DNA of 62,649 nucleotides. Source: a virus. Taxonomy: Duplodnaviria; Caudoviricetes. Positions 3,046 through 61,657 of this stretch are shown piece after piece. Position numbers and translations under genes: made by a program. Below the pieces are notes generated by a model. That model searched no databases and was not told where the DNA came from. It was given only the letters and a program-made list of their open reading frames with translations. The DNA lies in IMG/VR virus record IMGVR_UViG_3300018083_000030, positions 1-62,649 of that record. One strand, given 5' to 3'. The stretch's first letter is position 1. Each line of letters opens with the position of its first letter.

Positions 3046-4347
3046 CTATGCCCCCCAGCGCGAACAGTTGATCGGCACCGGACCAATGAACGGCCCATCG
3101 AAGTTTAGATTCCAGCCGTGATTTTGAAGGTAGGCACAGGCAAGCACCGAAATTTGCATGTTGCTTCCAATCCCCGCGTATGGGCCAAGCATCCCTGTCG
3201 GCGGCGCGGCATTGGGATTGCCGTTGTACGTTGGTGCATTCCAATTGCCGTTGGTTGTGATGTTGCGCATGGCGCACATGCCCAAGCTGGTGTCGATATA
3301 GAATCCCAGCCAATCACCAGACGCGAACGGCGGATAGTTCGCATAGCCCGTTCCGGCGGCGTAAAAAGTTCCTGTACCGCCCCACCCGACCGAATTGGTG
3401 TTTTGTCCGGGGTAATAACTCGACGGGGCCTCAAAGCCCAAATAGGACGCGCCAACCCCAATGATGCAGTTGTTTGAATCGCCCCCGAACGATTGCGCCT
3501 CGAAATACTTGCGGCCGGTGCGCACGTGTGGCTGTGACATGACCGTCCAATAGGCGGCGGTGGCGAAAGTCTTTGTGACGGTCAGATTGTTGTTGCTGAA
3601 CGCAAAGATCGGACCTCCGTTTGCAGCCGGTAGCTGGCGGTGCGGGTCCATGATGGTCTTCGACTCGGCCGCGACCGTGCCGGCAATCGTGGTGCCGGTC
3701 TTGTTGACGCCGTAGAGGTGGAACGTGCCGGCGGTGATGTTGCCGCCGGTGTTCATAATCCGAATCGCGTTGAATGCGCCGGTGTCGAGGATGTAGCTGC
3801 CGCTACCATCAAAGCCGGCGAGGCCATCGGTCGGGTTGCGCAAATGGCTTTTGTAAAAAAACGGTTTGAAGACTCCGGCTATTTGCGGGGTGAAAAATCG
3901 AACGGTGCCGAACACGGAAAATCCTGTTCCCGCCGTGTGCGCTCCCGTGATTTGCAATTGCGCTTGGTTGGCAAAGAAATTGACTGACCCGGCAGCGGCA
4001 TACGGAGCGTAGACTTGGCCCATGTGATAGCTGCTGGCGGCACCCTTGAATGTTGCGCCGCCGTCCTGGCTGATCCTGATCGCGAACGCGCCGTTGGCTG
4101 CACATTGCGCGCCGAAAAAATGCAATTCGTATTCGTCAAAAGTGCCGTCGATTCCCTTTGTGAAATCGACCGCCGCCACCGCGCTCGACACCACGCGCGA
4201 ATCAATCAACACGAGTTGCCCAGCGGGCATGACACCACCCAAGCCGCCGGGATCAATGATCCAGCCCAGACCGTTCCAGCGCCATCGCTTGCCGCCGAAA
4301 TCGTAGGTCTGGCCGACCAGCGGCGAGGCGGGGAAATCTAGCGGCAT
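3046..4347 (-). CDS. Putative receptor-binding protein with C-terminal SPRY/B30.2-like beta-sandwich
   Basis: N-terminus MPLDFPASPLVGQTY..RWRWNG. C-terminus FSNNNLTVT...TGRKYFE...IIGV...NSVGW...FASGDWLGFYID is SPRY-like. Confidence 0.65.
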   Translation of the reverse strand: MPLDFPASPLVGQTYDFGGKRWRWNGLGWIIDPGGLGGVMPAGQLVLIDSRVVSSAVAAVDFTKGIDGTFDEYELHFFGAQCAANGAFAIRISQDGGATFKGAASSYHMGQVYAPYAAAGSVNFFANQAQLQITGAHTAGTGFSVFGTVRFFTPQIAGVFKPFFYKSHLRNPTDGLAGFDGSGSYILDTGAFNAIRIMNTGGNITAGTFHLYGVNKTGTTIAGTVAAESKTIMDPHRQLPAANGGPIFAFSNNNLTVTKTFATAAYWTVMSQPHVRTGRKYFEAQSFGGDSNNCIIGVGASYLGFEAPSSYYPGQNTNSVGWGGTGTFYAAGTGYANYPPFASGDWLGFYIDTSLGMCAMRNITTNGNWNAPTYNGNPNAAPPTGMLGPYAGIGSNMQISVLACAYLQNHGWNLNFDGPFIGPVPINCSRWGA

Positions 4348-4357
4348 GTGATCACCA

Positions 4358-7264
4358 TCATGCTGCGATCTCCATCACCTGAAGCGTCGCGCGTTGCGTG
4401 CCGCCCAGATAGCGATTGGCGGCATAGCCGTTGACGTACACGTTATTGGCAGTGCCAGTTTGAAGATTGCCGTACCGTATTTTGAATGTTGTCGCAGCCG
4501 TAGAGCCGGCCGCAATTTCGACGTCCAAATTCATCGAACAGACATAGCCCGCGCCAGGAGTGGTAACGCAACTCGATGCGATGGCGTTGGCCGTTCCATC
4601 TCTAAACGCCGACACCTGTATCCCAGCGTTCAGGCCGCAAGCCATTGGAGCATTGAAGTGCAGCCGCAGTTTGTTGGTCGCCGCCTTCGGGGAAATCGAA
4701 ACCGTCAGCAATTCCGTCCCGCTCGATTGCTGCGGCACCGCGTCAATGACGCCAGCAAAGACGGCCGACGTGCTGGTGAGGGCGGTATATTCCGCATAGA
4801 CCGATTGCACGACGGTGCCGGCCGCCACGGCGTTGGCCGGCCCGGTTTCGATCCACGTCGATGAAAGCGCGCTAACGTGATAGGTGTACGAAATCCCGCT
4901 GGTGTCATCCAGCCATTGCATGCCCTCGGTCGGTGAAGCGGGCGGCGTCGAGGACACGGTGAGGCCGCCGCCGCCGGTAGGAGCAACACCGCCGCCGCCA
5001 CCGACCGCCACCCATTGCGACGAATTGGCGTCGGTCACGTACAGGAAAAGGATACCGGAATCGCTTTCCCACCATAGCGCGCCAGCGGTCGGCGACGCCG
5101 GTGGCGTGTCCGATATCGTGATCGATGCGCCGCTCGCCGCCGCGAGCGCCGCCGCTATGGCCGCCTGCACGAACGCGGTGCTGGCGGCGGTCGTGTCGTT
5201 GTCGCTGGTCGCCGCCGTCGGCACGCGCGGATCGCCAGTGAACACCGGCGAGGCCAGCGGCGCATAGGCCGACAAGTCAATCGACAGCGTGCCGCTGACC
5301 AGCGACAGCGGCGCGTTGGCCGTGACCACGCCGGCCGGACCCTGCGGCCCCTGGATGCCCTGCGTTCCGGGCGGGCCTTGCGTGCCGGTGTCGCCCTTCG
5401 GTCCCTGTGAACCCGTCGTGCCGGCCGGGCCTTGGATTCCCTGATCGCCCTTTGGTCCCTGTGCGCCCGTCGTGCCGGCCGGACCCTGCGGACCCTGCGA
5501 ACCGGGCGGGCCTTGGATCGAGCCGCCCGACACCCACGCCGTGCCGTCCCAGATCCACAGGCTATCGTCGGCCTGGACGATGTAGGCGTCGCCTTGGGTG
5601 TTGCCGCTCGCCGGCAAGTCCCCCGACGTCGCGACCGACCCTTGCATGGTGATGCCGGTGCCGGCCTCGCCCTGCGCCCCTTGGACACCCTGCGGCCCCT
5701 GCGGACCCTCCGGCCCGGCTGGTCCGGGAACGGTGCTTGCCGCCCCCTGCGCGCCCTGTGGGCCGGTTGGACCTTCCGGCCCTGCCGGACCTACCGGCCC
5801 GACCGTTCCCGGCGTCCCTGGGCTTCCCTGGGTGCCCTGTGGCCCTTGTATGCCCTGCGGACCCGCCGGCCCGGTGCCCCCCTGTGCGCCGGTTGCTCCT
5901 GCCGGCCCGACCGGCCCGACCGGGCCGACCGGCCCCGGTTGCCCGTTGGCGGCCACCCATTGCGTCGAGGTGCCGTCCCAGTAGGACACGTAAAGCGCCC
6001 CGGAATCGCTTTCCCACCACAGCAGCCCGGGGGTTGGTGTTGGCGGCGGCGTGTCCGCAATCGTCACCCCGCCGGCCCCGTCCTCGCCGGCTGGCCCAGC
6101 TGGCCCGGGCGGCCCCTGCGGTCCCTGTGGCCCGGGCGGTCCCGGGACACCCTCGCCGCCGCCGCCGGTGGCGTGGCTGGTCAAGTTGCCCAGCGCGTCG
6201 AGGTACAGCGGCTCGGCGATGGCGAGCGCCAGCGCGTCCTCGGCGTCGAGGTAGAACGGTTTTTTATAGGTCAGCGTGATGTTGGCACCGGTGACCTTGA
6301 CCGGTGGGCTGGCGGTGGGCGGTGCGCCGCCGCCACCGCTAATGATTTGCCCCATCTGGTTTTGCAGCTGGGCGACCGCTGCGCCGACTCCCAGCAACGA
6401 TACGACTCCGTCCTTGCTGGTCGCCTGCCACGGCTTCGTTCCGTCCGGCCCTTTCGCCAGTCCGATTTCGCCGCCCTCGCCGCCTTCGGCGAACGCCGCC
6501 GCCATGTTGTCGTCGTAGGCGTCGAACGTCACCGCGTCCTGCGCTGGTGTCACCGACGCATTGCCGCCGGCCCGGTGATCGCGGGCGTGGTGGATGGCAC
6601 CGACGTAAACGCCACCCGACGCCTCGAGATAGACCTTGCCGTCGACCTTTTGCTTGTGCTCCTTCGTGGCGAATTGCGTGCCGTTCGCCGCCTTCACGTC
6701 GAAGTTGCCTTGGGTGTTGTAGCCCTGGCCCTTGTCGGCGTTGTTCTTGAACACGCTTTTCGTGGTGCCGCTGACTTTCTGGTCCTTGCCGTCCCAGTGC
6801 ATGCCGGCGACTCGACCTGAGTCTTTGGTCTGCCCCGGCTCGGGATCGTCACCGCCGCCACCGTTGCCGCCGCCGGCACCGTTGCCGCCGCCTTTTTTTT
6901 CCTTCTTGTGCCGGATGAACAATTTCTTGTCGTCGGGCGAATAATTAAACGCTTCGTTTTCGTCCGGCTGCGGATGTTCCTCGCGGTCGCCGATCACCCA
7001 CGCCACGACGCGGCGCGATGAATCGCCGCCGACGTCCATCGTGAACACTTCCATTTTTTCGGAAGGCTTGACGTGCGCGACGTAGCCGACCGGGTGCAGC
7101 ACGTCGAGCTTGTCGTTCTCGATCTTGGATCCGGTGATGACGCGAGCGCGTAACAGCTTGCCGTCGTTGTAGACCTTTTTCAGATATCCGCGCCGAACGT
7201 AGTTGCGCACCTTGTGCGACAGGTGCAGCACGTGTTCCCATGATAGCGAGGGATTGCTTGACAT
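4358..7264 (-). CDS. Baseplate central spike (Mu gp45-like N-terminus) fused to a collagen-like fibre
   Basis: N-terminal [10 protein letters not shown]...[15 protein letters not shown]...DRE is gp45-like; follows the gp44 hub gene. Long Gly-X-Y runs and three TPP.SP..G.LWW.SDSG modules. Confidence 0.75.
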
Positions 7265-19388: not shown

Positions 19389-20030
19389 TCACATGCCGCT
19401 GCGCCGCAGGCGCGTGACCACCGCGATCAAGTCGAGCGCCGTGGCACCCTGCGAGAAAATCCGAATGAATTGCTTCGGGCACGACACCGCGATGCTGCAT
19501 TGAGAGTGCGCCTTCAGCGGACGTTGCGCCGAAAACGTGATCGAGGCGTCGCCGACGTCCACCCAAGTGAGGTTGAACGTGGCCCCGGTGCCGCCGCCAG
19601 AACTCGACACCTGGGCCGCCGGATTCGCCGGGGCCGTGCCGGTGATGCTGCCCGGATTGGCAATCGTCACCCCGGTGACCGCGCCAGCGTTCACGGTTGC
19701 GACCGTGAGCACCACGCCGTTCGCCAGCGTGATGGTGTGGCCGACGGCATAGCTGGCACCGCCGGCAACGATGGCCGCCGCGTTGACCTGTTTAGTCGCG
19801 ACCGCCGGCATCGGCGAGCAGTCGGGCAGGATTTGCAGCGGTGCCCACGATCCGGGCACGCACGCATCGTTCGCCGACGCATCGGCACCCTGCACCGTGT
19901 AGGTGCCGGTCACGATATCGCCGGCCGTCTGGTTCGCCAGCACCAGCGCGTAGGCAATGCCCGGGCTTATGTCGGCGAACTTGGGCGACAACACATTGTA
20001 GGCCAGCACCGTGCCCGCTGCGGATACCAT
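19389..20030 (-). CDS. Putative capsid decoration protein paralog with an inserted beta domain
   Basis: Clear paralog of 20038-20439 (SAAGTVLAYNV.SPKFADI...KAHSQC..AV.CPKQF.R) plus a ~75-aa insertion. Confidence 0.65.
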   Translation of the reverse strand: MVSAAGTVLAYNVLSPKFADISPGIAYALVLANQTAGDIVTGTYTVQGADASANDACVPGSWAPLQILPDCSPMPAVATKQVNAAAIVAGGASYAVGHTITLANGVVLTVATVNAGAVTGVTIANPGSITGTAPANPAAQVSSSGGGTGATFNLTWVDVGDASITFSAQRPLKAHSQCSIAVSCPKQFIRIFSQGATALDLIAVVTRLRRSGM

Positions 20031-20037
20031 CGCGACC

Positions 20038-20439
20038 TCACATCCCGGTGCGCTTCAATCGCGTCACCACTGCCAGAATGTCGAGCGTGCCAGCGGTGCC
20101 GGCCACCCGCACGAATTGCTTGGGACACGCGACCGCGAATGCGCATTGCGAATGCGCCTTGATCGGGTTTTGCGCGTCCACGGTGATCACCGCATTCGGC
20201 GCACCCGTCCCCAGCGGCGGCGAGCATTCCGGCTCGACCTTCAGCGGTGCCCAGACATCCGGGGCACACGGGTCGTCGGCCTTGGCATCGGCACCCTCGA
20301 CGGTGAACGTGCCGGTCGTGACGTCGGCGGCGGTCTGATTCGACAGGATGATGGCATAGGCGTGGCCCACGCCAATGTCGGCGAACTTCGGCGAGGCGAC
20401 GTTGTACGCCAGCACCGTGCCGGCTGCGCTAATGGTCAT
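20038..20439 (-). CDS. Putative capsid decoration protein
   Basis: Directly after the major capsid gene; beta-rich, 133 aa. Confidence 0.65.
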   Translation of the reverse strand: MTISAAGTVLAYNVASPKFADIGVGHAYAIILSNQTAADVTTGTFTVEGADAKADDPCAPDVWAPLKVEPECSPPLGTGAPNAVITVDAQNPIKAHSQCAFAVACPKQFVRVAGTAGTLDILAVVTRLKRTGM

Positions 20440-20470: not shown

Positions 20471-21814
20471 TTAGCCGATCCGCATAAGGCGAGCGGCGTT
20501 CGGGCAGATCGGTGCACCGCCGATTCGTGCTTCGAACTTGAACAGCACGCAGAAGCCCGCCGAATAGGGATCCTGTTGCATGGTGACCGCCTTGCGGTTG
20601 ACCACCATATAAGCCTGTTGCCAGTTGCCGTATGCGACCGGCGTTGCGCCAGCGACCACGTCGGGCATCTGATTGGCGATCACGACCGGCGAGCCGGCGA
20701 CGATGTATTGCCCGGCGACCAGCGGCGAGGCGATCATGATCGGCCGCCCCATGGCGTCCGACATGGTGAGCGTCAAGCCGAACGTGTTTTGATTCATCAG
20801 GTAGGCACCGCCCGGTCCCTGGAAATTCTGCGGGACGGTGTATTTCAGCAGCACCAGATCCTGCCACGTGAATTGCGCAGCTGGCGTGCCCGCGCCGGTG
20901 TCGCAGATCGGAATGCCGGAGCGCAGCAACCCCAGCGGCTTGCCGACGCCGTCACCCGATACGATGGCTTGCGAGATCTGATTGCGGTAAGCGCGATTGA
21001 CCTTCTGCAACAGCCACGACTCGATGTTGACGTTCGCGTCCTCCAGCAAGTCCCGCGACGTGCAGACGATATAGCGCAGCGACTCCGGCTTGATTTCGAC
21101 TTCGCCCAGCCCCTCGCCGATTTGCTGCGTCGGGTTGTTGGCGAAACACTGCGACTCGCAAGCCCACGCCGCCGTGTCCCAAATTTCGTTGTCGACCATG
21201 AATTTGACCGACGGCCCGCTGATCGTGATGTTCGCCATCAGCCCGGTAATGTCGGTGACGTCTTCGATGCACGATAGGATCGTGCTCGACATTTCCGGCG
21301 CGAGGAAGAAGCCGGTTGATCCCAGATTGAACGACGACAACGCCTTGCGCTGATCGTCGGGCAACTCGGAAATGTTCGTGCAGTGCATCAGGTTGCGCAT
21401 GGCCTTGATCGCGATGCCGGCCTCGGTCACCTGATCGTCGGTGTAAGAGAACGGATGGTCGCCGCCGCGCTTCGTCACCCGCGCATAGTGCTTGGTTTCG
21501 AGCAAGGCAACGGCCTGTTCTTTCATCGTGTCTTTTTCATCGCCGCCGCCGGGGCGCTGAACTTTTTTCGACAGCGAGTTGATGGCCTCTTGCAAGCCTT
21601 GCAGCTGGGCCACGTGCTCGGCCGCCTCCTTCACGATGCGGTCAAGCTTGGCCTCGGTTTCGGTGTGCGTCTTCGACCCGTTGGCAATATCTTTTTTCAA
21701 TTCTTCGAACGTCGAAGCACGCGCGGCGTCGGCCGTTGCCAGCGCCTCGCTTTGCTTTTTCACCTCGGCCTGCACGTCCTTCAACAACGTCTGTACGGTT
21801 TCCTCGATGGTCAT
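20471..21814 (-). CDS. Major capsid protein, HK97 family
   Basis: N-terminal coiled-coil delta domain; GFFLAPE, SRDLLEDA, GDGVGKPLGLL, DPYSAGF..FK..ARIGG. Confidence 0.95.
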   Translation of the reverse strand: MTIEETVQTLLKDVQAEVKKQSEALATADAARASTFEELKKDIANGSKTHTETEAKLDRIVKEAAEHVAQLQGLQEAINSLSKKVQRPGGGDEKDTMKEQAVALLETKHYARVTKRGGDHPFSYTDDQVTEAGIAIKAMRNLMHCTNISELPDDQRKALSSFNLGSTGFFLAPEMSSTILSCIEDVTDITGLMANITISGPSVKFMVDNEIWDTAAWACESQCFANNPTQQIGEGLGEVEIKPESLRYIVCTSRDLLEDANVNIESWLLQKVNRAYRNQISQAIVSGDGVGKPLGLLRSGIPICDTGAGTPAAQFTWQDLVLLKYTVPQNFQGPGGAYLMNQNTFGLTLTMSDAMGRPIMIASPLVAGQYIVAGSPVVIANQMPDVVAGATPVAYGNWQQAYMVVNRKAVTMQQDPYSAGFCVLFKFEARIGGAPICPNAARLMRIG

Positions 21815-22509
21815 GGGACGCGCCTTTCTTTGACGTCGTGCAGGAGTGCCTTTAGCGCGGCGGCCAAGGCGGTGAGTCGTTCATCGTCGGAGTCCCTGCC
21901 GTCCGATGCCTTGAATCCATCTATCTCGGTTATATCGATTCGGCGGTGATCGCCGAATCCCTTGCGCAATACACTCTCGACGTCGCCGTCGGTCCAGCCG
22001 TTGTCGTGCAGCCAGTCCCGCGTTTGCTCGCGGGATAGACTCTTGACCGCACTCACCGTCGCACCCGGATTCGCCGGCAGCGATACGATGCTGCATTCGA
22101 TCAACGATGCGCGTTTGATGGTGCGGACCTGTTTGCTGTCGTCCCAGCTGGCCCCGCCCGGTTCGATCATGAAGCCTACGGAAAGCCCGTCAAGGAAACC
22201 CTGTTTCATCAGGGCGTGAGTCTCGCGGCCCTTGTCGGTCAAAAGCGAAATCGCGCCTTCGACCTTCAGATACTTGCCGTCCTGTTCGAATTTTTGCCAG
22301 CCGCCGATCAAGTGCTCGCGGTTGTGGTCGCGAAACATCTTGACCTTTTTCGGCGTGATGCTGCCGAACGCGCCGGCTTCGATAATGTCGCGAGCGCGAT
22401 CACGCTCGGCTGTTGATGCGATTCCGGTGAACGATGCACGGTCGGCACCGTCGGCAATGGCTTTCGTTTCGAAGCCAGCTTCGGACCACGAGAGATCGTG
22501 AATCAACAT
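21811..22509 (-). CDS. Prohead protease, HK97 family
   Basis: DRARDIIEAGAF...DH...LDGLSVGF...LIECSIVSLPANPGATV. Confidence 0.95.
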   Translation of the reverse strand: MLIHDLSWSEAGFETKAIADGADRASFTGIASTAERDRARDIIEAGAFGSITPKKVKMFRDHNREHLIGGWQKFEQDGKYLKVEGAISLLTDKGRETHALMKQGFLDGLSVGFMIEPGGASWDDSKQVRTIKRASLIECSIVSLPANPGATVSAVKSLSREQTRDWLHDNGWTDGDVESVLRKGFGDHRRIDITEIDGFKASDGRDSDDERLTALAAALKALLHDVKERRVP

Positions 22510-22612
22510 GATTGCCCCGCGCTTCGCTGGCGCGGACGGCACCGCAGCCCAGCGCCACAGCGGGGGACACTATGCCAAAAGCCGGAAGGGCGCAAATACT
22601 TACCGGAGACTG

Positions 22613-24151
22613 TTAAAGGCGGCCGGCAGGAGAGTGCCGCAACCGCGCAATCATCCGGTCAGCCTGTCGGATGAATGGCCCCAGTCCAGCCGCGTCCGAT
22701 TGCAGCAAGCCTTCGCGATATTCGATCCACTCTTCGACCGGGGCCTCGGGTGACGGCGGATCGATGAATGCCAGCGGCGGCTCGCGCACCGCCTTAGTGG
22801 TGAACGATTTGCGATACGTGCTGATCCGCTTCGTCATGTCATCCACGATGCGTTCGAACCGCAATGGATCCCGCAACACTGCGGCCTCGAGATCCGGTGC
22901 AAGCTCGGCTGTATAATCGACCAGCCCCGCCCGCTTCACCGCCGTCACCGCTGCATGGGTTTGCACACGGTACGCCATGCTTCCCGTCAAGTCTTGCAGC
23001 TGGTCGAGCCCCCGCCCGTAGAGCACCTTTAACGCTTGGCCGGCATTCGGGTGCGCGCTGGTCGCAAGATAGCGACTGCCAAGCGCACCGTGCGCATAGA
23101 GTCGCCGCAAGCCGTGATATGCGCCCAGCACCGAAAGATCCTGTCCAGAAAACGATCCGTCGCCCGGGTGATTGTGGTGCACCTCGATCTGTCGGAATTC
23201 ATCTCGGATCGCCGCCGACAATGCCGGCGTGAAATTCACTTCGCCTTTGGATCCGCTGTTCGCGTCGGCCATCAGCTGGCCGGTCTGGTAATCGATCCAA
23301 CGCAAATGTTCGCGCCCGGTGGCGCGGCCCTGGTCCCGCACATAGCGTTCGGCCTCGGTCGCCGCCGCTTGCCGGCGCATGTCCAGATTGCCGACCGGCA
23401 CCACGTCGGGCGGCGGTTCCGGCTCGGTTGCCGGCCGCGCCCCCTCGCTGTGGTACAGAATCGAACACCGGCAATTGACTATCTCTTCGGCCCCCGCGCC
23501 CAGACTGGCATCGCCTGGGCGCATCATTTGCGCACCGCCGACGGAGAACGGTTCATCGAATGGCACGGTCGTGCCGCCGACCGCAACGTGCGACGGCCGC
23601 GTGCGGTTGTCGTTGATCGCGACCCACGTTTTTGATCCGACCTTGATGTTCTTGTATTTCAGCGCCGCTTCGACGCCGGCCATGGCCGCATTGTGCGTTT
23701 CGGTGCGCGCGATCACCATCGCCCGCTTTTTGCCAAGCTCGGGCGCGCGCTTGGCAATCTCGGCCGCGATCCGCTTGGTGCTCTTGCCCTGCCGCACCAT
23801 GTCGATGATCAACCCGGCGACCATGTCGGCCAGCGTGGTCGAGATGTTGGTGATCTTGGCCCCGGCGTTGATCGTGAGCCACGCCACTTGCTCGCCCATG
23901 AACCGGGTTAGTGCCTTTTCCTCGACCTGGGCGGTGATGGCGCGGTATTGGTCGCGATAGATGTGACGATAAAACAACGCCAGCAATGGCCGGCCGCGCT
24001 TGTTCACGTAGTCGATGGCGCGCGCGTGATTGCGATTCGCCTGTAGCCGAATGCCGGCAATCAATATCGGTGCGAGCCGCACATGGAGTCGCTGTTCCAT
24101 CACGTCGAGATAACGCTGGAACGCCCGATCATTGGCGACGTCTAGCAACAT
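22613..24151 (-). CDS. MuF/SPP1 gp7-like minor head protein with C-terminal JAB/JAMM-like extension
   Basis: Start MLLDVAND (ATG 24151). MuF motifs IARTETH, KTW..D.RTRPSH, PGD, E.VNCRC; then REH...HHNHPGDGSFSGQD. Confidence 0.85.
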   Translation of the reverse strand: MLLDVANDRAFQRYLDVMEQRLHVRLAPILIAGIRLQANRNHARAIDYVNKRGRPLLALFYRHIYRDQYRAITAQVEEKALTRFMGEQVAWLTINAGAKITNISTTLADMVAGLIIDMVRQGKSTKRIAAEIAKRAPELGKKRAMVIARTETHNAAMAGVEAALKYKNIKVGSKTWVAINDNRTRPSHVAVGGTTVPFDEPFSVGGAQMMRPGDASLGAGAEEIVNCRCSILYHSEGARPATEPEPPPDVVPVGNLDMRRQAAATEAERYVRDQGRATGREHLRWIDYQTGQLMADANSGSKGEVNFTPALSAAIRDEFRQIEVHHNHPGDGSFSGQDLSVLGAYHGLRRLYAHGALGSRYLATSAHPNAGQALKVLYGRGLDQLQDLTGSMAYRVQTHAAVTAVKRAGLVDYTAELAPDLEAAVLRDPLRFERIVDDMTKRISTYRKSFTTKAVREPPLAFIDPPSPEAPVEEWIEYREGLLQSDAAGLGPFIRQADRMIARLRHSPAGRL

Positions 24152-24158
24152 TGGCGAT

Positions 24159-24767
24159 TCACTCTGCCGCCTCGCCGAACTTGTCGAGTTCGTTCCCCCA
24201 GCTGTCCCAGCCCGACCGCCGGCGGCGGGCGAACAACTCGCAATAGGGTCCGGCCACCAGCCGCTCGATCCGACCGTGCACGCAATCCGGCTTGCGGCTG
24301 TGCTGCCGCCTCGGTTCGATGATGGCTTGCCGCACACCGGCGTCGATCCGCTTGGGGTTGCCGCGCGTCGCCAGCAAGCACGGCTCGGTGTTGGCGCGCG
24401 TCCAGTAGCCCATTCCGACTTGCACGTCGGTGTCGTCGCGGAACATTTCGAGTTGCCCGGCGTGCGCCTTCGTCCACACGAAGCCCGCCGTTTTGAATTC
24501 AAAGCCCCACATGTCAATCAACGCCAGCGCGTCGTGCAGATTGGGCCAGCACGCCCACAGGAACAGCACGCAATCGTCGGCGGCCAGCTGGCCCACCGGC
24601 AGCGCGGCCAGCGCGGCGGTGTCCATGGTCCCATAATGCCGCTCGACCGCCCGCGAGGTGTTGGCGTCGGTGCGCTCCCACCATGGACGTTTCGACCAGT
24701 TGTAGAATTTCCACGGCGGGTCGGCGAGGATGGCCCGGTAATGCCCGGGCGTGAGGCCGTCGAACAT
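24159..24767 (-). CDS. MT-A70 family N6-adenine methyltransferase
   Basis: ILADPPW, VLFLW, WGF..KT..FVWTK, GMGYWTRANTE, HSRKP, ELFAR...W..WGNE. Confidence 0.95.
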   Translation of the reverse strand: MFDGLTPGHYRAILADPPWKFYNWSKRPWWERTDANTSRAVERHYGTMDTAALAALPVGQLAADDCVLFLWACWPNLHDALALIDMWGFEFKTAGFVWTKAHAGQLEMFRDDTDVQVGMGYWTRANTEPCLLATRGNPKRIDAGVRQAIIEPRRQHSRKPDCVHGRIERLVAGPYCELFARRRRSGWDSWGNELDKFGEAAE

Positions 24768-24887: not shown

Positions 24888-26174
24888 TCACGGCGTTTCC
24901 ACATCACCCTCGCCGCTGACCTCGACGCCCACCTGTCCGGCCAGGATTTCGACCTGCATCCGCTTGCGATTCAAGTCCTCGGTCATGACCGGAACGTCGG
25001 ACGTCGGATCGTCGTCCGGCGGATATCCTAGCAGCGCCCGCTGTTCGTTGACCGATAGCATCGAAGCGTTGCGCGCGATATCCACAAGCTGCAACCGCGC
25101 CGCCGCCATCGCCGGAATGTGGGTGATATCCACCCGGATTTCGGCCGGGCTACCGTGCAGCAATGCGTGATTCAACGCCGCCACGTAGAGGTTGATATAG
25201 CCCGGCAACACCGTGTCGGTGAGAAACCCGACGCGCGCATTGGTCAAGTTGTTGTAGGTGTCCGTTCCCGGGATGCCGACCAGTTGTGTCGGCACGCCGA
25301 ACGTCATCACCACGTCACGGGCGAGCGAATCCTTGATCTCGACCGATAGCGCGCTGGATGGATCCTCCGACAACCGGGTCAGCATCCACTTGGCGTTCGC
25401 CGTCACCATGGTGCCGCCCGACTCCTTGCCGTTCAGCTTGAAGCGGTCGAGGCCGTCCTTGATATCCTGCACCGCCTTTTGCGCCATCTCTTGCTCGGTC
25501 GACAGCACCCCGGTGATGTTGGACGAATTCGAAACGATATCGGCGCAGCGTTGCAGAATCCGGGTGAACACCTCGGCCGGAGCCGCCGCGATAGCGGCCG
25601 GCGACTTGTCGCTTTGCCAGTTAAGTGCCGGGCGGTGAATGTAGATTAGCTCACACTCGCCGGTTTCCGGGTCGACCGGAAAATACTCGGTGCCCTGCGA
25701 GGTGATGCGCTTGAACCCGGCAATCACTTTAGAATGGTTCAAAAATTCGATGGTGATTTCGTTAGCGTTGATCGGCCACAGTTCCAGAATGACCGGGCTA
25801 TTCCCGTTGACGCCGCGCACCTGTTTCAAGAATGCCCGGCTGGCCACCGCCAGCGACGCCGCGATGAAGTATTGCAGCGCGGCCGACGTCCATTGCGGGT
25901 TCGGCCGCTCGATCACGTCGGCGACCCGCTGTTCGGTTGGCCCCAGCGCGCCCGACTCCGTGTGCACCTCGAGCGCCACCGACGACGACATTTGCGCAAT
26001 CATGTCGACGGATCGCCACAGGTAGATGTTGCGGACGTACTCTTTCAGCATCTCGACCGACATGCGGTCGAGCGACACCTGATTGTTGACGGTCGACGCC
26101 ACGCTACCGGATCCGTGCAACACCAGCGCCGCCGTCGCCGGTGGAGCCTCTTGCTTCGACCACCACCACGCCAT
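24888..26174 (-). CDS. Portal protein, HK97 family
   Basis: RDVVMTFGVPTQLVG...TYNN...F...TVLP...SVNEQRALLGYPP. Confidence 0.9.
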   Translation of the reverse strand: MAWWWSKQEAPPATAALVLHGSGSVASTVNNQVSLDRMSVEMLKEYVRNIYLWRSVDMIAQMSSSVALEVHTESGALGPTEQRVADVIERPNPQWTSAALQYFIAASLAVASRAFLKQVRGVNGNSPVILELWPINANEITIEFLNHSKVIAGFKRITSQGTEYFPVDPETGECELIYIHRPALNWQSDKSPAAIAAAPAEVFTRILQRCADIVSNSSNITGVLSTEQEMAQKAVQDIKDGLDRFKLNGKESGGTMVTANAKWMLTRLSEDPSSALSVEIKDSLARDVVMTFGVPTQLVGIPGTDTYNNLTNARVGFLTDTVLPGYINLYVAALNHALLHGSPAEIRVDITHIPAMAAARLQLVDIARNASMLSVNEQRALLGYPPDDDPTSDVPVMTEDLNRKRMQVEILAGQVGVEVSGEGDVETP

Positions 26175-34957: not shown

Positions 34958-35185
34958 ATGACAATGACCGTCGTTCGTGAATTCTCCCCCTGCGGCCCGT
35001 GCCTCACCCTCGGCGCGCTCGTTCGGGAAACCGCGCAATTCTACTGCTACGCCGACCGTGCCGACGGCACCCAACGCAAGATCCGCAAGCCCACCCCGGG
35101 CAACTGGTCAAAGGCCCACGTCGAGCCTTGCGTGTCGTGCCGCGACCACGCCCGGACCCAATACCCCCACGGCTATCAAGACTGA
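34958..35185 (+). CDS. Small hypothetical protein
   Basis: AAGGA RBS; H.EPC.SCRDH...QYPHGY. Confidence 0.65.
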   Translation: MTMTVVREFSPCGPCLTLGALVRETAQFYCYADRADGTQRKIRKPTPGNWSKAHVEPCVSCRDHARTQYPHGYQD

Positions 35186-35205
35186 TCACCCCAGAAAAAG
35201 GACCA

Positions 35206-36366
35206 ATGACAATGTCTGTTCGTAAACGCGCCTGGACCTCCCCCAACGGTGAAAAGAAAACCGGCTGGGAGGTGTCCTATTCGGTCAACGGCAAGCGGCA
35301 CCGCAAGCTGTTCGACCTGAAGAAACCCGCCGACGCTTTCCATCTGCGCGCCCGCAACGAAGTCAGCACCGGCGTGCACACCCCCGACTCGGTGTCGGTC
35401 ACCGTCGCCGAAGCCGGCGCGCGCTGGCTCGAGCATTGCGAGGCGCGCGGCATCGAACGCTCGACCATCACCGCCTATCGCCAACACCTCGCCCTGCACA
35501 TCGCCCCCTATCTCGGCGGCGTGAAGCTCTCGACCTTGACCTTGCCGATGGTGCCGGAGTTTCAAGACCGGCTGCGCGCCGACGGCCGCTCGCCGGCCAT
35601 GATCCGCAAGTCCCGCGTCGCACTCGGCGCGATCTTGAAGTTCGCCCAGAAGCGCGGCCTTGTCGGTCAGAACGTGGTGCGCTCGCTCGGCCGCGACGAC
35701 GATCACGCCACCGACCGCGCCGCCAAGCGCCCGCTGGAAATCGGCGTGGACATTCCGTCCCGCGACGAGATCCGCGCCATCGAATCCAAGCTGCCGGGCA
35801 CCCGCTATCGGGCGCTGCTGACCACCGCGTTCACGACCGGGTTGCGCGCGTCCGAACTGCGCGGGCTGCGCTGGGCCGACGTCGACCTGAAACGCGGCGA
35901 ACTGCACGTGCGCCAGCGCGCCGACCGTTACAACCGGATCGGCCGCCCCAAGTCATCGGCCGGCACCCGCTCGATCCCGTTGATGCCGATGGTCGTCGCC
36001 GTGCTGCGCGAGCACAAGCTGGCCACGCCGGCCAATGCGCTCGACCTTGTGTTCCCGAATCGCAAGGGCAAGGTCGACCACCTTGTAACCATCGCCGAAG
36101 GCTGGCGCGCGGCGCAGGAGCTTGCCGGCGTCGTCGGCCCCGACCGCGCTGCGAAATATCCCGGCCTGCACGCGATCCGCCATTTCTATGCGTCGTGGTG
36201 CATCAACCGGATTGCCGACGGCGGCCTCGAATTGCCGATGAAAGTGGTGCAGGGCCGGCTCGGCCACGCCACGATTTCGATGACCGCCGACGTCTATGGC
36301 CACCTGTTCCCGACCGCCGACCATAGCTCGGAAATGGCCACCGCCCAGCGCGCTTGGCTGGCCTGA
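35206..36366 (+). CDS. int: Tyrosine integrase
   Basis: TGLRASELRGL, PKS, HAIRH, LGH..ISMT.DVYGH catalytic residues plus an N-terminal arm-binding region. Confidence 0.95.
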   Translation: MTMSVRKRAWTSPNGEKKTGWEVSYSVNGKRHRKLFDLKKPADAFHLRARNEVSTGVHTPDSVSVTVAEAGARWLEHCEARGIERSTITAYRQHLALHIAPYLGGVKLSTLTLPMVPEFQDRLRADGRSPAMIRKSRVALGAILKFAQKRGLVGQNVVRSLGRDDDHATDRAAKRPLEIGVDIPSRDEIRAIESKLPGTRYRALLTTAFTTGLRASELRGLRWADVDLKRGELHVRQRADRYNRIGRPKSSAGTRSIPLMPMVVAVLREHKLATPANALDLVFPNRKGKVDHLVTIAEGWRAAQELAGVVGPDRAAKYPGLHAIRHFYASWCINRIADGGLELPMKVVQGRLGHATISMTADVYGHLFPTADHSSEMATAQRAWLA

Positions 36367-40506: not shown

Positions 40507-40722
40507 GCGCGCTCGCCCACGCCGTGGTGCTGTGGGCCGTGGCCGCCGCCGTGCTGGTGATGGTGCTGACCCTGACGTTCGCCTGACACGATTTCGAAAC
40601 TTTTCTTTCGAAATTGACCCGTGGACGGGTTGACGGGGCGAGATTTCTCATTTTCAATTGAAAACGCCGGCCACTGGGATGGCCGGCGCTCCTGCAACCC
40701 GGTCACAACGGAGGGAATCCAC

Positions 40723-42159
40723 ATGACCGCGTCCAACATCATCAACCGCTTCACCCCGCTGTCAACCTACGGCGTGCAATTGCCGTCGCACGTGCTGGTG
40801 AAACCAACCCGGCAGAACCTGCTGACCGAATTCCACCAGTACGGCTACGACGGCGAGCAATTCTTCGGCGTCGCCTTCGTGCAGGGCAACCGCCTGCAAT
40901 TCACCACGGCCATGCCCATGACCGTGCTGCACAAGGTCGCCAAAATCGACCGCGCCGGAGCCGGCTCCAATATCACCTCGCTGCAAAAAGCCGCCAACCG
41001 CCCCAAGATCGCCGGGCATAGCAAAGCCCTGCGCCAGTACCTTGTCGATAACGCCTGCAAAGGGGAGAAGTTTATTTTGCCGGCGTTCGCCATGAACTTC
41101 GGCGATGAGAGTACGACACCGGAAGACGCGCCCAATGCCGTGCTCTGGATCTACGCCCACGAAAACGAGAACTCGACCAACGGCTGGCCCGCCCTGTTCC
41201 AGCTGCCGCGCGGCATCAAATTGGATGCAACCGATGGCGCGCATCGGCTGGACGAATCCGAAAAGATTGTCAGCGACGGCAAGCTGACGGAGGCACAACG
41301 CGAAAACCTCGGGCGCAATGCCTGCGACGTCAAAATCATCTTCGAAAGCAAGCGGATCGACGCCCATCAGGATTTCGCCGATTGCGCCAAGGCCAAGCCG
41401 ATCACCGGCAGCATCATCTCTTCGTTCGATGTGCGCGACTTGCGCAACTCGCAAACCGTGCGGCTGGTGGAGTCGGTCGACTTTTTAAAGCACTACGTCG
41501 ACGCCACCGCCGCAAATGTGAATTTGTCGGCCGGCAGCTTGAAGATCTGGAGCATGTCGGCCGTGCGTGGCTTCGTCGGCCACGTGCAAGACCGCTACCC
41601 GCCACCCGCCGGCGGTGACGCCAGCGCCGTCGAATCCACCCTGGTCGAGAAACTGTCGGGCGCACCCCTGTTCTTCGGTGCCATGATTAAACACCTCCCC
41701 CAGCTGCACACCCTGGAACTGGCACGCCTGGAAGCCGAAGCCCGGCGCGCCTGCCCGCAACCGGCACCGCCCGCCGTCCGTACCGAAACCCCCGCCACGT
41801 TCAGGAACAAGCGCGGCGGTGACGTCGCACTCCGCGGAATCGGCATGTCCCTGTTCGCTCGGGCGTTCCTGTACGCCAAGCAACACGGCCTGTCGTTCGA
41901 TCATATCGCCCAACGGTTGGCCGCCGTCGATTGGCACGTGCTCGATTGCGAACGCGACGACTTGCCGAATCCAGCCACCGAAGAAGGCCGCCTCACGTTC
42001 GCCGATGAAGTCCGACGCCACGTCGTCCCAACTTGGACCTCGCTGATCATCGTCGGCGAGTCACGCTATCGCATCGGTTCGTCCAACGACGAAGCGAACG
42101 CCGCCTGGGAGCGCATCAAAGCGGCGCATTTGGATCCTATCGCCGAAGCCGCAGAGTAA
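40723..42159 (+). CDS. DndB/DGQHR-domain (ParB-superfamily) protein
   Basis: GGAGGG RBS; F.QG.R, NRP....H...L..YL, FILPA, ATDGAHR (DGQHR variant), HQDFAD...KPI. Confidence 0.75.
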   Translation: MTASNIINRFTPLSTYGVQLPSHVLVKPTRQNLLTEFHQYGYDGEQFFGVAFVQGNRLQFTTAMPMTVLHKVAKIDRAGAGSNITSLQKAANRPKIAGHSKALRQYLVDNACKGEKFILPAFAMNFGDESTTPEDAPNAVLWIYAHENENSTNGWPALFQLPRGIKLDATDGAHRLDESEKIVSDGKLTEAQRENLGRNACDVKIIFESKRIDAHQDFADCAKAKPITGSIISSFDVRDLRNSQTVRLVESVDFLKHYVDATAANVNLSAGSLKIWSMSAVRGFVGHVQDRYPPPAGGDASAVESTLVEKLSGAPLFFGAMIKHLPQLHTLELARLEAEARRACPQPAPPAVRTETPATFRNKRGGDVALRGIGMSLFARAFLYAKQHGLSFDHIAQRLAAVDWHVLDCERDDLPNPATEEGRLTFADEVRRHVVPTWTSLIIVGESRYRIGSSNDEANAAWERIKAAHLDPIAEAAE

Positions 42160-58397: not shown

Positions 58398-59561
58398 TTA
58401 ATCCTGTCGCACGTGCGTGATCTTTACGCGCCCGTTCGCGCCGGCCAGCTGGTAACCGTAGTAATAATTATCACTCTGATTGCCCGATCCGCCGCCGCCC
58501 GGTGGCAAGCCGGCATTGCCTTGCATGGCATACAGCCGGCCGCGTCCGGTGCCGCCGCCGGGCGATCCGCCCAAGCCCCAGAACACTTGGTGCGGGAAGC
58601 CGCCCGAACCGTCGATCATTTCCATGCCGCCGGTGCCGCCCTGGCCGGGCGTCGATCCCACCTCACCGTCGAGGTTGCCGCCACCGCCGCCGACGCATGA
58701 CATCAGCACCGGGCCACTCTGGATCGAAATGCTGGTCGTGCCGCCGGGGAATCCGCGATTGCCGCCGGCCTGATTGCCCTGCCCGCCAACACCCACGATC
58801 AAGTTTAAGATCTGCCCGGTGACCACCCGAAGATAAAGCAAGCCGTACTGCCCGCCGCCGCCACCGCCACCGCCGCCGCTACCGGTGCCAGCTGCACCGC
58901 CGCCGCCCGCGCCCCACGCCTCGATTCCCACATTGGTCACGCCGGTCGGCACCGGCCACGAGGTCGAGCTATTGAAAATCAACACGGTGAGATCGAAAGC
59001 GTCGCCGCCGAATTGCGACGGCACCGGGCCGACGACATAGAACGACCCGCCGTAGAAGATCGCCTCGAATGGTTTCAGCGCATAGAGATCCTGCGGTGCC
59101 AGATTCAGGCCGTCGTTGCGCACCACTGGCACCGGGCCATGGCCGTCGAGATTGACTGTCACCGGGCCGGTGTTGGCCTTCTCCGGCAAGATGCTTAACG
59201 TCATGTAGTTGTTGTAACCGGTCGACGGCGGGTCGAGCGTGGCGGTGAAATTGTTGGGACCGCCGACGAACATTGTGCCGCGTGGCAAGCCGCGCTGAAT
59301 CAAATAGCGCGCCGCCAATTCGAGATTGGTCAAGCGGTTCGGGTTGTAGGCAATCATGGCGCGGTCGACCAGCGCCTCTTGCTCGCTGATCAGTGAGTTG
59401 ACCACCTCCGGCCGCAAGCGCACGTCGCAGCCGTTGCCGTAGTACAGCGCGGCGGTGCCGACCGGTGCGGTGATCGGCGGATATGCGTGCGTCGGGTTCA
59501 GCTGGTCGTTGGGATTCGGTGCCAGCCCGCCATCGGTCGCAGCCGGGAAAATGCCACTCAT
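58398..59561 (-). CDS. Tail fibre 2 (glycine-rich tip)
   Basis: N-terminal baseplate-anchor domain, NTGPVTVNL, W.VP.GVT...WGAGGGG. Confidence 0.75.
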   Translation of the reverse strand: MSGIFPAATDGGLAPNPNDQLNPTHAYPPITAPVGTAALYYGNGCDVRLRPEVVNSLISEQEALVDRAMIAYNPNRLTNLELAARYLIQRGLPRGTMFVGGPNNFTATLDPPSTGYNNYMTLSILPEKANTGPVTVNLDGHGPVPVVRNDGLNLAPQDLYALKPFEAIFYGGSFYVVGPVPSQFGGDAFDLTVLIFNSSTSWPVPTGVTNVGIEAWGAGGGGAAGTGSGGGGGGGGGQYGLLYLRVVTGQILNLIVGVGGQGNQAGGNRGFPGGTTSISIQSGPVLMSCVGGGGGNLDGEVGSTPGQGGTGGMEMIDGSGGFPHQVFWGLGGSPGGGTGRGRLYAMQGNAGLPPGGGGSGNQSDNYYYGYQLAGANGRVKITHVRQD

Positions 59562-61567
59562 GTACGGCCCCCTTGCAGTGCTGCGACCTGCGATTCGAGT
59601 TGATCAATGCGGCGCATCGCATCCTGCAACGCTTGGATCAATGCCGGCACGCATTTGGAATAGTCCACCGACCACGGCATGAACCCGGCTTCGCCCGGCT
59701 CGCCGGTGCCCTTGACGACAGCTTGCGGCAACACCGGCTCGAGTTCCTGCGCCATCAATCCGACGGCGTGGCCGCCGCCATCTTTCCAATCGAACTCCTG
59801 CACCGCCAGCGCGTCGATGATTTCGCGACCGCGCGAAAACGGCGTGTTGTTTTCCTTCAGCCTGATATCGGAGCTTGCCGCATACACGGTTTCGTAGTCG
59901 CTGATTCCAATCACGCCCACCTGGGTGCCGGCGTAGTTGTAAAATCCACACGCATAATTGCCGGCACCGGACCCGCCGGTGGCGGATCGACCCCAGAACG
60001 TAATCCCGACATGACCCCAGTACGTGTTGCATTGCGCTTCGGTGTTGCCGAAGTACGATGCCGCGCCAGCCGATCCGGTATAGGGGCCGATGCCGACGCA
60101 CCCGTCGGTACGGCGGATGGTGAACGGTGTGTTTTGCGTAGCCCCAGCGTCGCTGAATCCGATGATTTGAAAATCATCGCGCGCGGCGTTGCCGATGCCG
60201 CGCATTGACCAGCGCCCGACGGTGCTTTTCTTGAATAGTATTTCGCCGACGTAGGTTGCGCCCGGCGAGTCAACCGCCAGCTGTGCGTTGTTGCCGGCTG
60301 GCGCTTTCAGCGTGAGCGCCGGTGCGGCGAACGTCGCCGTGCCGGTGGCACGTGAGATCAACAGTGGCGTGGTGAGTTGCGAGTCGCCGTCGGAATAGGA
60401 GTCGAGGCGGAAATCGCTGCCGGCGTTGCTGCCGGCCTCGGCCGTGGCGTCGCCCAGCACCAGACGCCACCGCCGCTTGTTGTCGATGCGATTCAACCCG
60501 GTGATGGCGGCATCGTTGCCCGGGTTCTTGTAGATGCGGAACGTCGGTGCAGGGTCGTTGATCCACACGCTTTTGAACGTGGCCACGCCGGATGCGCGGT
60601 CGATCACCAGCGGCGAGTCGATGACGACGCCGGCATCGTCGCAGCGCGTCACCGCATAATTTGCGCCGGCATTGGCCCCGCCTTCCGGTGCGGTGTTCAT
60701 TTCCGCGCGCCATCGGTCGATGCCGTTGCGCTGGTATCCGAACCACGCCGAACCGTTGGCGGCGACCGAATTGACGTTGATGGCCGGCTGGACCTTGGCG
60801 ACCGAAATGTTGCCGGTGAACACGCCCCCGGTTTGCGGCATGTACGATGGGCCGCCGGCCGATATCGGAGTCCAGCCGTTGTTCAGCCGGGCATAGGTTT
60901 GTCCGTCGGTCGGGGCCTCGCCGATCTTGGTGTCGGCATATTGCTTCGGCACCGCCTCGAGCGGCTGCGTCGGATCGCCGTGCAACACCAGCGGCCCCGT
61001 CAGCTGGCCGCCGGTGAGTTGCAACACCTGAGTCCACGCCACGCCCTTGCGACCATAGGCGAACGTATCGTTCGGCGCTTCCGGCATCGCCACCACGATG
61101 GCGTCGACGTAGGCTTTGCTTGCGGCATGCTCCGGCAATGTCGGCGTGACCGGAATGACCAGCGCGCCGGTCATGGTGTCGCCGGCCTTGGCCACTTTGA
61201 GCGCGTCGCCGTCGTCCACGTATTGCTTGGATGCGGCGTGGTTGGGTGCGGTCGGTGCGCCCGGCAGGATGATCGGCCCGGTCACCGCCCCGCCCGCGCT
61301 GTCCAGCTTCTGATCGAATCGGGCCACCAGCGCGTCGCCCAGATTGGTCACCAGATTGGCATTGAATGAGAACCCCAGCCGGTCGACGGCGGCCAACGGC
61401 TCGGACGTGAGCGCGTTCATTTGTGCGTCGGTCAGCATGGTCGAGCAATCGGACGCGACGTAGAACGGCCCGTTGCCGATCACCGTGTGCGCGGGGATGT
61501 AACCGTTGACAACACCCGGCCCCGGCGGAACGCCGCCCATTTCTTCAGGTGGGAAAATTGCCGCCAT
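59558..61567 (-). CDS. Tail fibre 1 with C-terminal peptidase S74 intramolecular chaperone
   Basis: GDTMTG/ASKQYVD shaft repeats; SSDIRLKEN...G.MAQE....P.AV...VDY...LI.ALQ. Confidence 0.85.
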   Translation of the reverse strand: MAAIFPPEEMGGVPPGPGVVNGYIPAHTVIGNGPFYVASDCSTMLTDAQMNALTSEPLAAVDRLGFSFNANLVTNLGDALVARFDQKLDSAGGAVTGPIILPGAPTAPNHAASKQYVDDGDALKVAKAGDTMTGALVIPVTPTLPEHAASKAYVDAIVVAMPEAPNDTFAYGRKGVAWTQVLQLTGGQLTGPLVLHGDPTQPLEAVPKQYADTKIGEAPTDGQTYARLNNGWTPISAGGPSYMPQTGGVFTGNISVAKVQPAINVNSVAANGSAWFGYQRNGIDRWRAEMNTAPEGGANAGANYAVTRCDDAGVVIDSPLVIDRASGVATFKSVWINDPAPTFRIYKNPGNDAAITGLNRIDNKRRWRLVLGDATAEAGSNAGSDFRLDSYSDGDSQLTTPLLISRATGTATFAAPALTLKAPAGNNAQLAVDSPGATYVGEILFKKSTVGRWSMRGIGNAARDDFQIIGFSDAGATQNTPFTIRRTDGCVGIGPYTGSAGAASYFGNTEAQCNTYWGHVGITFWGRSATGGSGAGNYACGFYNYAGTQVGVIGISDYETVYAASSDIRLKENNTPFSRGREIIDALAVQEFDWKDGGGHAVGLMAQELEPVLPQAVVKGTGEPGEAGFMPWSVDYSKCVPALIQALQDAMRRIDQLESQVAALQGGRT

Positions 61568-61657
61568 TCGGTCCCGCCCCGCTTGGTTCGCGCCGGATAC
61601 TAGACTCAAAATGCTTAAAGCGGAAATGCTAAGGATCCCGCCAAGGCCCGGCGGCGT

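Follow-up and report, generated by a model that had tools for sequence, protein, structure and literature searches.

The stretch of DNA analysed here (the window) is an entire virus record (IMG/VR IMGVR_UViG_3300018083_000030) of 62,649 bases, with an estimated completeness of 98%. Positions 22613-23400 form the 3' portion of a minus-strand gene encoding a MuF-type head protein, the C-terminal half of which is predicted to combine a RadC-related JAB/JAMM-like metal hydrolase with a small fused partner module that may act as its inhibitor. The longest open reading frame (ORF) containing this gene extends from 22613 to 24517 on the minus strand. The ATG at 24151, located 8 nucleotides (nt) past the stop codon of the MT-A70 methyltransferase gene, is the likely start codon and gives a protein of 512 amino acids (aa), referred to as P0001. 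The order of genes on the minus strand is large terminase, portal, MT-A70 methyltransferase, MuF-JAB gene, S78 prohead protease and HK97-type capsid protein.

The N-terminal half of P0001 matched the Pfam family PF04233 (Phage_Mu_F) over aa 114-231 (positions 23459-23812), with 63.7 bits against a cut-off of 29.6 (E-value, E, of 3.2e-17). It also matched TIGR01641 (SPP1 gp7; 42.5 bits, cut-off 39.65) and PHROG head-morphogenesis families covering aa 70-247 (phrog_2468, E 9e-37), and the MuF motif NCRC was found at aa 227-230. Judged from the profile scores, which exceed their cut-offs, and from the position of the gene in the head module, the N-terminal half is a MuF/SPP1-gp7-type minor head protein, as had been recognized in an initial annotation of this DNA. 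All the strings quoted in that annotation (NCRC, a Pro-rich linker, REHLRWID, HHNHPGDGSFSGQD and the tail IDPPSPEAPVEEWIEYREGL) were present where it had placed them. Searches of Pfam, NCBIfam and PHROGs with P0001 left aa 250-512 unexplained.

A HMMER search with aa 251-512 retrieved 318 representative relatives at E ≤ 1e-3, 58 at E ≤ 1e-10 and 4 at E ≤ 1e-30. MuF was present in 75 of the 114 family members that were aligned (members of at most 650 aa). The putative metal site of P0001 consists of E281, carried by REHLRWID (aa 280-287), and of H326-x-H328-x6-S335-x2-D338, carried by HHNHPGDGSFSGQD (aa 325-338). These positions were near-invariant in the 114-sequence alignment, in which counts are given relative to the sequences aligned at each position: E281 (108/109), H326 (110/110), N327 (108/110), H328 (109/110), P329 (110/110), S335 (108/110), and D338 (110/110). 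The pattern H-x-H-x6-S-x2-D was found in 147 of the 156 proteins retrieved; the nine others were four tail-only proteins, four proteins with HNHP that have lost the Ser, and one protein without the motif. The JAMM-like motif noticed in the initial annotation is thus not a chance match, since it is near-invariant in the alignment (98-100%) and present in 147 proteins.

The canonical JAMM spacing is HxH-x7-S. The window protein and all 147 motif-bearing relatives had x6 and not the canonical x7, and the shorter spacing, being shared by all of them, is therefore a property of the whole family. The sequence HNHP at the metal site, which we take to be a RadC signature, was found in 147 of the 156 family proteins. 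Conservation extended beyond the JAMM motif to H354 (79%), position 356 (His in 96 of 111 sequences), H399 (89%), and Y413 (97%); the last two lie in a helical extension of about 75 aa carried by the core.

An AlphaFold2 model of aa 251-512, computed with the 114-sequence alignment, had a predicted local distance difference test (pLDDT) score of 95 and a predicted template modelling (pTM) score of 0.91. When this model was compared with 48,161 chains by VIA-align, JAB/MPN proteins were the sole matches over model residues ~9-166, with Z-scores (Z) of 4.9 to 6.5. PfJAMM1 (5ld9; Z 6.5, root-mean-square deviation 3.9, 113 residues aligned) and 2kks (Z 5.7) were at the top; defence-type proteins, namely the Bil deubiquitinase (8tyy, Z 5.5), Cap3 (9ild, Z 5.5) and BubCD (9ea5, Z 5.0), were also matched, as were AfJAMM (1r5x, Z 5.2), RadC (2qlc, Z 4.9), Rpn11, Sst2, and CSN5. 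The top rows of a Foldseek search against the PDB comprised RadC (2qlc, probability 0.69), an Rpn11 homologue (6fno, probability 0.90), AMSH/Sst2, CSN5, BubCD, and deaminases. Because the structural matches agree and the motif residues occur in the right order, we accepted aa 265-440 as a divergent JAB/MPN-type fold, for which the model is consistent evidence and not strong evidence on its scores alone. The fold assumed in the initial annotation is thereby retained, with modest scores. In BFVD, 14 matches were obtained at E ≤ 1e-3, seven of which were named 'minor capsid protein'.

RadC was the only named Pfam family reached, with weak matches in six of the 114 members (best E 7.9e-4), none of which gave a JAB or Prok-JAB match. 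P0001 had no match to Pfam RadC (PF04002) at E ≤ 10, nor to JAB or Prok-JAB; since its relatives match RadC and it does not, we consider it to be RadC-related and outside the RadC model. Among the giant relatives, P0016 matched RadC with 24.6 bits (cut-off 22.1) and also carried LPD39, and P0111 carried LPD38. These domains identify the giant relatives as 'polyvalent proteins' of Iyer et al. (2017), where passages on the RadC clade of JAB domains predict an action on nucleic acids or nucleotides (PMC5512222). No match to DUF4329 (Tox-JAB-2) was found among the 114 members at E ≤ 0.01. The nearest clusters in the ESM Atlas were unnamed, with Prok-JAB, RadC, and DUF4329 as weak leads at 0.79-0.82 (DUF4329 at 0.79). 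A sequence search of the PDB with the whole protein gave no match at E ≤ 10, and a search with the family profile gave noise and a RadC match restricted to the motif (E 0.15). In PHROGs, the core matched only a family of 3925 aa without assigned function, and the partner gave nothing significant. The JAB domain was rare in cultured collections, with a single weak match per collection (50,697 phage and 72,556 plasmid records).

The tail string IDPPSPEAPVEEWIEYREGL begins at aa 463, in a module (aa 459-510) that contains FIDPP. Few of the 114 sequences in the alignment, about 20, had residues opposite aa 455-512, and the HMMER search also returned small proteins similar to the tail only, namely P0105 (64 aa), P0108 (58 aa), and P0121 (72 aa). 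A profile search of a large protein database yielded 61 small proteins of the partner family, 60 of them without a Pfam domain. In the remaining one, a metagenomic protein of 98 aa (P0197), the FIDPP module is preceded by an N-terminal extension that carries a CopG/BrnA-type antitoxin annotation (PF12441). When the tail was scanned for by itself, 56 pattern matches were obtained in genomes and 123 in viral contigs, none of which was confirmed by tblastn, probably because the 58-aa query was too short.

To locate the tail in related loci, a hidden Markov model (HMM) of it was searched, up to E ≤ 10, against all six-frame ORFs of at least 30 codons in the window and in DNA of relatives, which came from two annotated records and from collections of viral, genomic and metagenomic sequences. 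All 18 matches lay on the same strand directly after a JAB domain, one of them (L005) duplicating the window, and no match was obtained away from the JAB domain in any six-frame ORF of these loci. Counting the window, a tail-like sequence followed the JAB domain in 17 of 20 distinct loci, which is not a random or unbiased frequency, since L008-L020 came from one narrow pattern ([LV]HHNHPS[SG]xS).

The tail was encoded in three ways. It was fused in frame in three loci (the window, L001, and L002), it was a separate gene of 50-61 aa in ten loci (L004, L008, L010-L016, and L019), and it was embedded, in a different reading frame, within a long ORF in four loci (L007, L009, L018, and L020). Homologues of the tail as a separate downstream gene, which the initial annotation had suggested looking for, thus occur in ten related loci. 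In the window itself, no gene lies in the 70 nt between the stop of the MuF-JAB gene (22613) and the start of the prohead protease gene (22542), and the earlier observation that no separate immunity gene follows was correct.

In eight of the ten split loci, the start codon of the partner overlaps the stop codon of the JAB gene (ATGA or GTGA); in the two others, the overlap between the genes measures 11 nt and 23-38 nt. The N-terminus of the separate partners lies only 2-10 residues ahead of the IDPP motif in all ten. MuF was found in the main protein of the six split loci checked (L008, L011, L013, L015, L016, and L019), and L011 sits between a coat-protein gene and a tail-terminator gene. The ORFs that host embedded tails range from 1,566 to at least 2,951 codons and continue beyond the JAB domain; each embedded tail begins with a start codon of its own, with a Shine-Dalgarno-like GGAG/GAGG ahead of it. 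These embedded tails are candidate overprinted genes or frameshift sites, as judged from sequence.

The embedded partner-like ORFs (50-67 aa; tail HMM E from 3e-11 to 1e-5) were located at L007:5689-5838 (Ruegeria phage 45A6), L009:4599-4766, L018:3527-3727, and L020:~3620-3826. The giant frame is a low-complexity linker across the overlap, and the small ORF is unannotated in the GenBank record of Ruegeria phage 45A6.

In a midpoint-rooted FastTree phylogeny of the core (109 sequences, after five rows with fewer than 120 core residues had been dropped), fused forms made up one clade of 10 (support 0.92), and one fused case (P0022) was placed elsewhere. On this basis, the fusion is derived and probably arose more than once.

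Some candidates were considered and set aside. Standalone relatives of about 200 aa, P0025 (= L014) and that of L004, were not retained as free-standing forms, because their ORFs run off the contig and they may be fragments. M439 was rejected as a vestigial start codon of the partner, as it lacks a Shine-Dalgarno sequence and the corresponding helix position is Leu or Ile in relatives. A free-standing JAB-like gene of 231 aa was observed outside any phage module on plasmid pAB510d of Azospirillum sp. B510 (L006:5884-6815). An ORF of 79 aa (P0158) overlaps its stop codon (ATGA) and has a loosely similar PP..W.EW pattern. This ORF was not accepted as a partner homologue (hhalign probability 22%, BLASTP E 0.24, no match to the tail HMM at E ≤ 1 in a search of the proteins or at E ≤ 10 among the ORFs of the locus).

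The association of the tail with the core was modelled on the split pair of Kaistia soli, using the JAB domain (aa 345-539) of the L011 protein and its 55-aa partner. Three runs gave a median interaction prediction score from aligned errors (ipSAE) of 0.91 (range 0.91-0.92), versus 0.00 for the best of three controls. Among 80 solved complexes, 58 score as high, as do 2 of 110 mismatched pairs; this comparison is rough, since our own alignments were supplied. At least 98% of contacts agreed between runs, and the pLDDT of the partner was at least 88.

The enzyme contributes E370, H415, H417, S424, and D427 to the predicted interface, together with strand 390-396 (301-307 in the window protein); by alignment, these five residues correspond to E281, H326, H328, S335, and D338 of the window protein. 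On the partner, the interface comprised residues 3-14 (IHGFIDPPSPFA) and helix positions. F6 of the partner (in GFIDPP) contacted E370, H415, S424, and D427, residues 4-8 paired antiparallel with residues 396-392, and the partner helices contacted residues 471-493, which belong to the helical extension of the core. The segment that is best conserved in the partner ([FL]IDPPxP[FY]) is predicted to be an added β-strand in the catalytic cleft, with the two helices clamping the domain. JAMM peptidases hold the C-terminal tail of ubiquitin as a strand in this manner, and some protease inhibitors insert their N-terminal segment similarly. In the single-chain model of the window protein, aa 461-463 (AFI) formed a short strand and the tail had a pLDDT of 89-96. 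The complex model supports binding of the partner without proving it. The fused inhibitor guessed at in the initial annotation fits a partner placed in the catalytic cleft of a split relative; that part of the guess gained support, and the inhibition itself is inferred.

The coordinates of the gene, its parts and its neighbours are given in Table 1.

Table 1. Features of the MuF-JAB gene and of neighbouring genes in the window
Feature	Positions	Strand	Basis
Whole gene, MuF - JAB-like - tail, 512 aa + stop (ATG start likely)	22613..24151	-	ORF and start-codon analysis
MuF/SPP1 gp7-type head-morphogenesis domain, aa 70-247	23411..23944	-	PF04233, phrog_2468, TIGR01641
Pro-rich linker EGARPATEPEPPPDVVPVG, aa 236-254	23390..23446	-	Read from sequence; pLDDT <50 in full-length model
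RadC-clade JAB/JAMM-like metal-hydrolase core (predicted), aa 265-440	22832..23359	-	Model, structural matches, relatives
E281, predicted catalytic Glu	23309..23311	-	108/109 conserved; equivalent E370 in predicted partner interface
H326-N-H328-P-x4-F-S335-x2-D338, predicted metal-binding motif, x6 spacing	23138..23176	-	98-100% conservation
Core-to-tail linker, aa 441-458	22778..22831	-	Poorly conserved; aligned in only 7-101 of 114 sequences
Tail, putative fused partner module, aa 459-510	22622..22777	-	Tail HMM E 4.6e-24; homologous small genes
FIDPP segment of the tail, followed by two helices	22754-22768	-	Within tail module
Prohead serine protease (S78), next gene downstream	21811..22542	-	Pfam PF04586, E 1.8e-20
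MT-A70 DNA methyltransferase, next gene upstream	24159..24767	-	Pfam PF05063, E 1.5e-25
Portal protein	24888..26174	-	Pfam PF04860, E 3e-34
HK97-type major capsid protein	20471..21814	-	Pfam PF05065, E 4.2e-44

The phage is considered temperate, since a tyrosine integrase is encoded at 34999-36366. The MT-A70 methyltransferase gene lies inside the head module, between the portal and MuF genes, which is an unusual site, and an anti-restriction role is possible. Just downstream of the capsid gene, two adjacent minus-strand genes (19389-20030 and 20038-20439) encode proteins of 213 and 133 aa, both without a Pfam match. Their closely similar N-terminal halves (M..SAAGTVLAYNV.SPKFADI...) mark them as tandem paralogues, perhaps head decoration or fibre proteins. 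In the early region, a plus-strand gene (40621-42159) encodes a DndB-like protein (PF14072, E 3.8e-22), of a family associated with DNA-sulfur modification. Two likely tail fibre proteins are encoded on the minus strand: one of 968 aa with collagen triple-helix repeats (4358-7264), and one of 683 aa with an S74 intramolecular-chaperone domain (59558-61609).

Overall, we favour, with slightly better than even confidence, a reading in which the MuF head protein carries a latent metallohydrolase effector together with its cognate pseudosubstrate-type inhibitor, fused in cis. The C-terminal half would be a two-part effector cassette made of the RadC-clade JAB hydrolase (aa 265-440) and the small partner (aa 459-510), the latter being a pseudosubstrate-type inhibitor (an immunity or latency module) that would block the hydrolase. 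The Pro-Pro that follows the contact residue would make the segment resistant to hydrolysis, and the metal might be within reach of the conserved Asp. With such an inhibitor, the hydrolase would be inactive in the producing cell and while heads are assembled. Anchored in the capsid through its MuF part, the protein would bring the effector into the next cell along with the DNA. The block would then be lifted when the protein unfolds upon ejection, through cleavage by a protease (the gene for the prohead protease comes next), or in response to a trigger from the host. Inhibition, delivery with the virion and the means of release are the conditional steps of this proposal. It would be a bolder and rather doubtful extension to suppose that RadC-clade JABs of phage head proteins and giant polyvalent proteins are latent peptidases always paired with a pseudosubstrate inhibitor of about 55 aa.

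As the partner is predicted to bind as a strand in the cleft, the substrate would by a narrow preference be a peptide bond. A nucleic acid or nucleotide is a distinctly less probable substrate, with the partner still acting as inhibitor. This is what was predicted, in passages of their papers, by the authors who defined the RadC and toxin JAB clades (PMC5512222, PMC3482391). Moreover, the JAB domain shares a deaminase-like fold, deaminases appeared among the Foldseek matches, and the additional conserved His residues (H354, position 356, and H399) lie outside the JAMM motif. However, no nuclease-type motif was found, and the predicted strand of the partner beside the metal site resembles the way in which JAMM peptidases recognize peptides.

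Two further explanations accept the binding of the tail and differ on its role, and we regard each of them as improbable. According to the first, the JAB domain acts on the tail or small protein itself, as its substrate or as a site of self-processing, cleaving at or near [AG]-F-I-D-P-P (in cis in the fused form) and thereby releasing or maturing the tail. The predicted strand does cross the catalytic residues as a substrate would, and autoprocessing peptidases are described in passages on phage-packaged polyvalent proteins, such as DdrB of P1 (PMC5512222). Against this, the partner is already separate in ten loci, in which the short segment ahead of IDPP leaves little to cleave; Pro-Pro after the contact residue should resist cleavage; and there is no obvious rationale for placing a substrate peptide beside each copy of the enzyme, even inside giant ORFs.

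According to the second, to which we give a similarly low weight, the JAB domain needs the tail in order to fold, to be active or to be packaged, and is not inhibited by it; the tail would be a subunit with a structural or activating role, or an adaptor for capsid or portal targeting. Obligate subunits commonly fuse and split, the tail was modelled confidently within one rigid unit (pTM 0.91), and its pair of helices touches the extension of the core. This is difficult to reconcile with the position of the most conserved part of the partner, predicted over the E, H, H, S, and D residues, where it would occlude access of the substrate. The antitoxin-like extension of P0197 (PF12441) also argues against a subunit, as a weak and single case.

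The role proposed in the initial annotation, a virion-delivered isopeptidase that would strip ubiquitin-like (Ubl) conjugates of host defences (CBASS Cap2, Bil, or Bub) and so counter those defences, is the least probable: the modelled fold is common to Cap3 (9ild, Z 5.5), the Bil deubiquitinase (8tyy, Z 5.5) and BubCD (9ea5, Z 5.0), the predicted cleft accepts a peptide strand, and the gene context suggests co-expression with late structural genes, but these structural scores were no higher than those of unrelated JAB proteins, PADLOC gave no family at E ≤ 1 (with P0002 and P0025), the nearest sequence family is RadC and not Prok-JAB/Cap3, and no phage virion JAB deconjugase was listed by a literature search. 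Nothing was found to support a deconjugase acting against CBASS Cap2/Cap3 or Bil, with matches lacking in PADLOC as well as to Pfam JAB and Prok-JAB. The link to Ubl-based defence likewise failed in the gene neighbourhood, where no E1, E2, Ubl, or CD-NTase genes adjoin and the neighbours are head-assembly genes and the methyltransferase.

Several observations weigh against the proposal of a latent effector with a fused inhibitor. The structural scores on which the fold assignment draws are modest (Z < 8), and Foldseek gave no PDB match at E ≤ 1e-3. Position 356 (23084-23086), a His in the family consensus (AHGH), is Ala in the window protein (AHGALGS); as this position varies within the fused clade (A, N, S, or H), the Ala may reflect altered activity or relaxed constraint where the partner is fused. 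The tail was not detected by its HMM at E ≤ 10 in three of the 20 loci (L003, L006, and L017), and the narrow pattern noted above bears on how the other 17 are read. The complex was modelled for a split relative, and we infer the position of the tail in the fused protein by homology. Moreover, a substrate or a product could explain a strand in the cleft just as well as an inhibitor, and an inhibitor that is covalently fused requires a release step. Incorporation of MuF fusions into the virion and their ejection are assumed from SPP1 gp7. Finally, the passages in which the RadC and toxin JAB clades were defined predict nucleases, not peptidases (PMC5512222, PMC3482391).

The placement of the partner in the catalytic cleft, as predicted, makes the function of RadC-type JAB domains directly testable. 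These domains are widespread in phages, plasmids, and bacteria. In the passages retrieved by a literature search, no biochemical activity was assigned to them. The pair described here would add an effector and its inhibitor to the cargoes delivered by MuF proteins, and the cis-fused version poses the question of how a packaged effector is armed. If the bolder extension to all such JAB domains is correct, the need for an inhibitor would be strong enough to keep three encodings (a gene overlapping the stop codon, a cis fusion, and an overprinted gene), which would amount to a family-wide 'safety catch' for injected effectors and give a first experimental handle on the action of RadC-type JAB enzymes. 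The embedded copies also point to unannotated overlapping genes in giant phage ORFs, one of them in the cultured Ruegeria phage 45A6.

With regard to known systems, the occurrence of RadC-type JAB domains in MuF and polyvalent proteins is already established, as is the logic of an effector with a small immunity gene. The IDPP partner family, its predicted binding to the active site, and the three encodings, including the cis fusion and the copies in the other frame, were not found in the literature passages retrieved. The RadC-clade JABs of Iyer et al. (2017; PMC5512222), as described in passages of that paper, resemble the window protein in their HNHP-type motif and in their occurrence in prophages, in MuF fusions and in giant proteins with LPD38/LPD39. 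In contrast, the window protein has no Pfam RadC match, has x6 instead of x7 spacing, and possesses a helical extension of about 75 aa and a cognate small partner. These passages contain no mention of an immunity protein, overlapping genes, autoinhibition, or self-intoxication.

The MuF polymorphic toxins of Jamet et al. (2017; PMC5576092) are similar in having an N-terminal MuF domain and a variable C-terminal effector, and in belonging to temperate phages. The split relatives fit their pattern of a MuF toxin followed directly by a small ORF, whereas the putative immunity module of the window is fused in cis and is not a separate downstream ORF. That paper's main text mentions neither JAB nor RadC, and its Ct_MAD domain, which passages there map to the C-terminal region of COG2369, was considered and is probably a different domain. 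The toxin JAB clades described in 2012 (PMC3482391) are, in passages of that work, JAB-fold conflict effectors paired with an immunity protein, as is proposed here. They differ from the present family in their delivery, by RHS, the type VI secretion system and others instead of MuF, and the 55-aa partner here, made of a strand and two helices, is neither an NTF2 fold nor a lipoprotein.

The JAMM/MPN+ isopeptidases (AMSH, Rpn11, CSN5, Cap3, Bil, and Bub) share the order of the E/HxH/S/D residues, together with a fold and a strand beside the metal that are predicted in the present family. Compared with these enzymes, the window protein has a spacing that is one residue shorter and no sequence-level match, and no Ubl, E1, or E2 genes adjoin its gene. 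The fused form would work in the manner of the autoinhibited toxin-antitoxins of the CapRel and EzeT types, which carry an effector and its neutralizing module on one chain and whose relatives encode the two separately. Their folds are unrelated to those described here, where the module would be carried by a putative virion protein.

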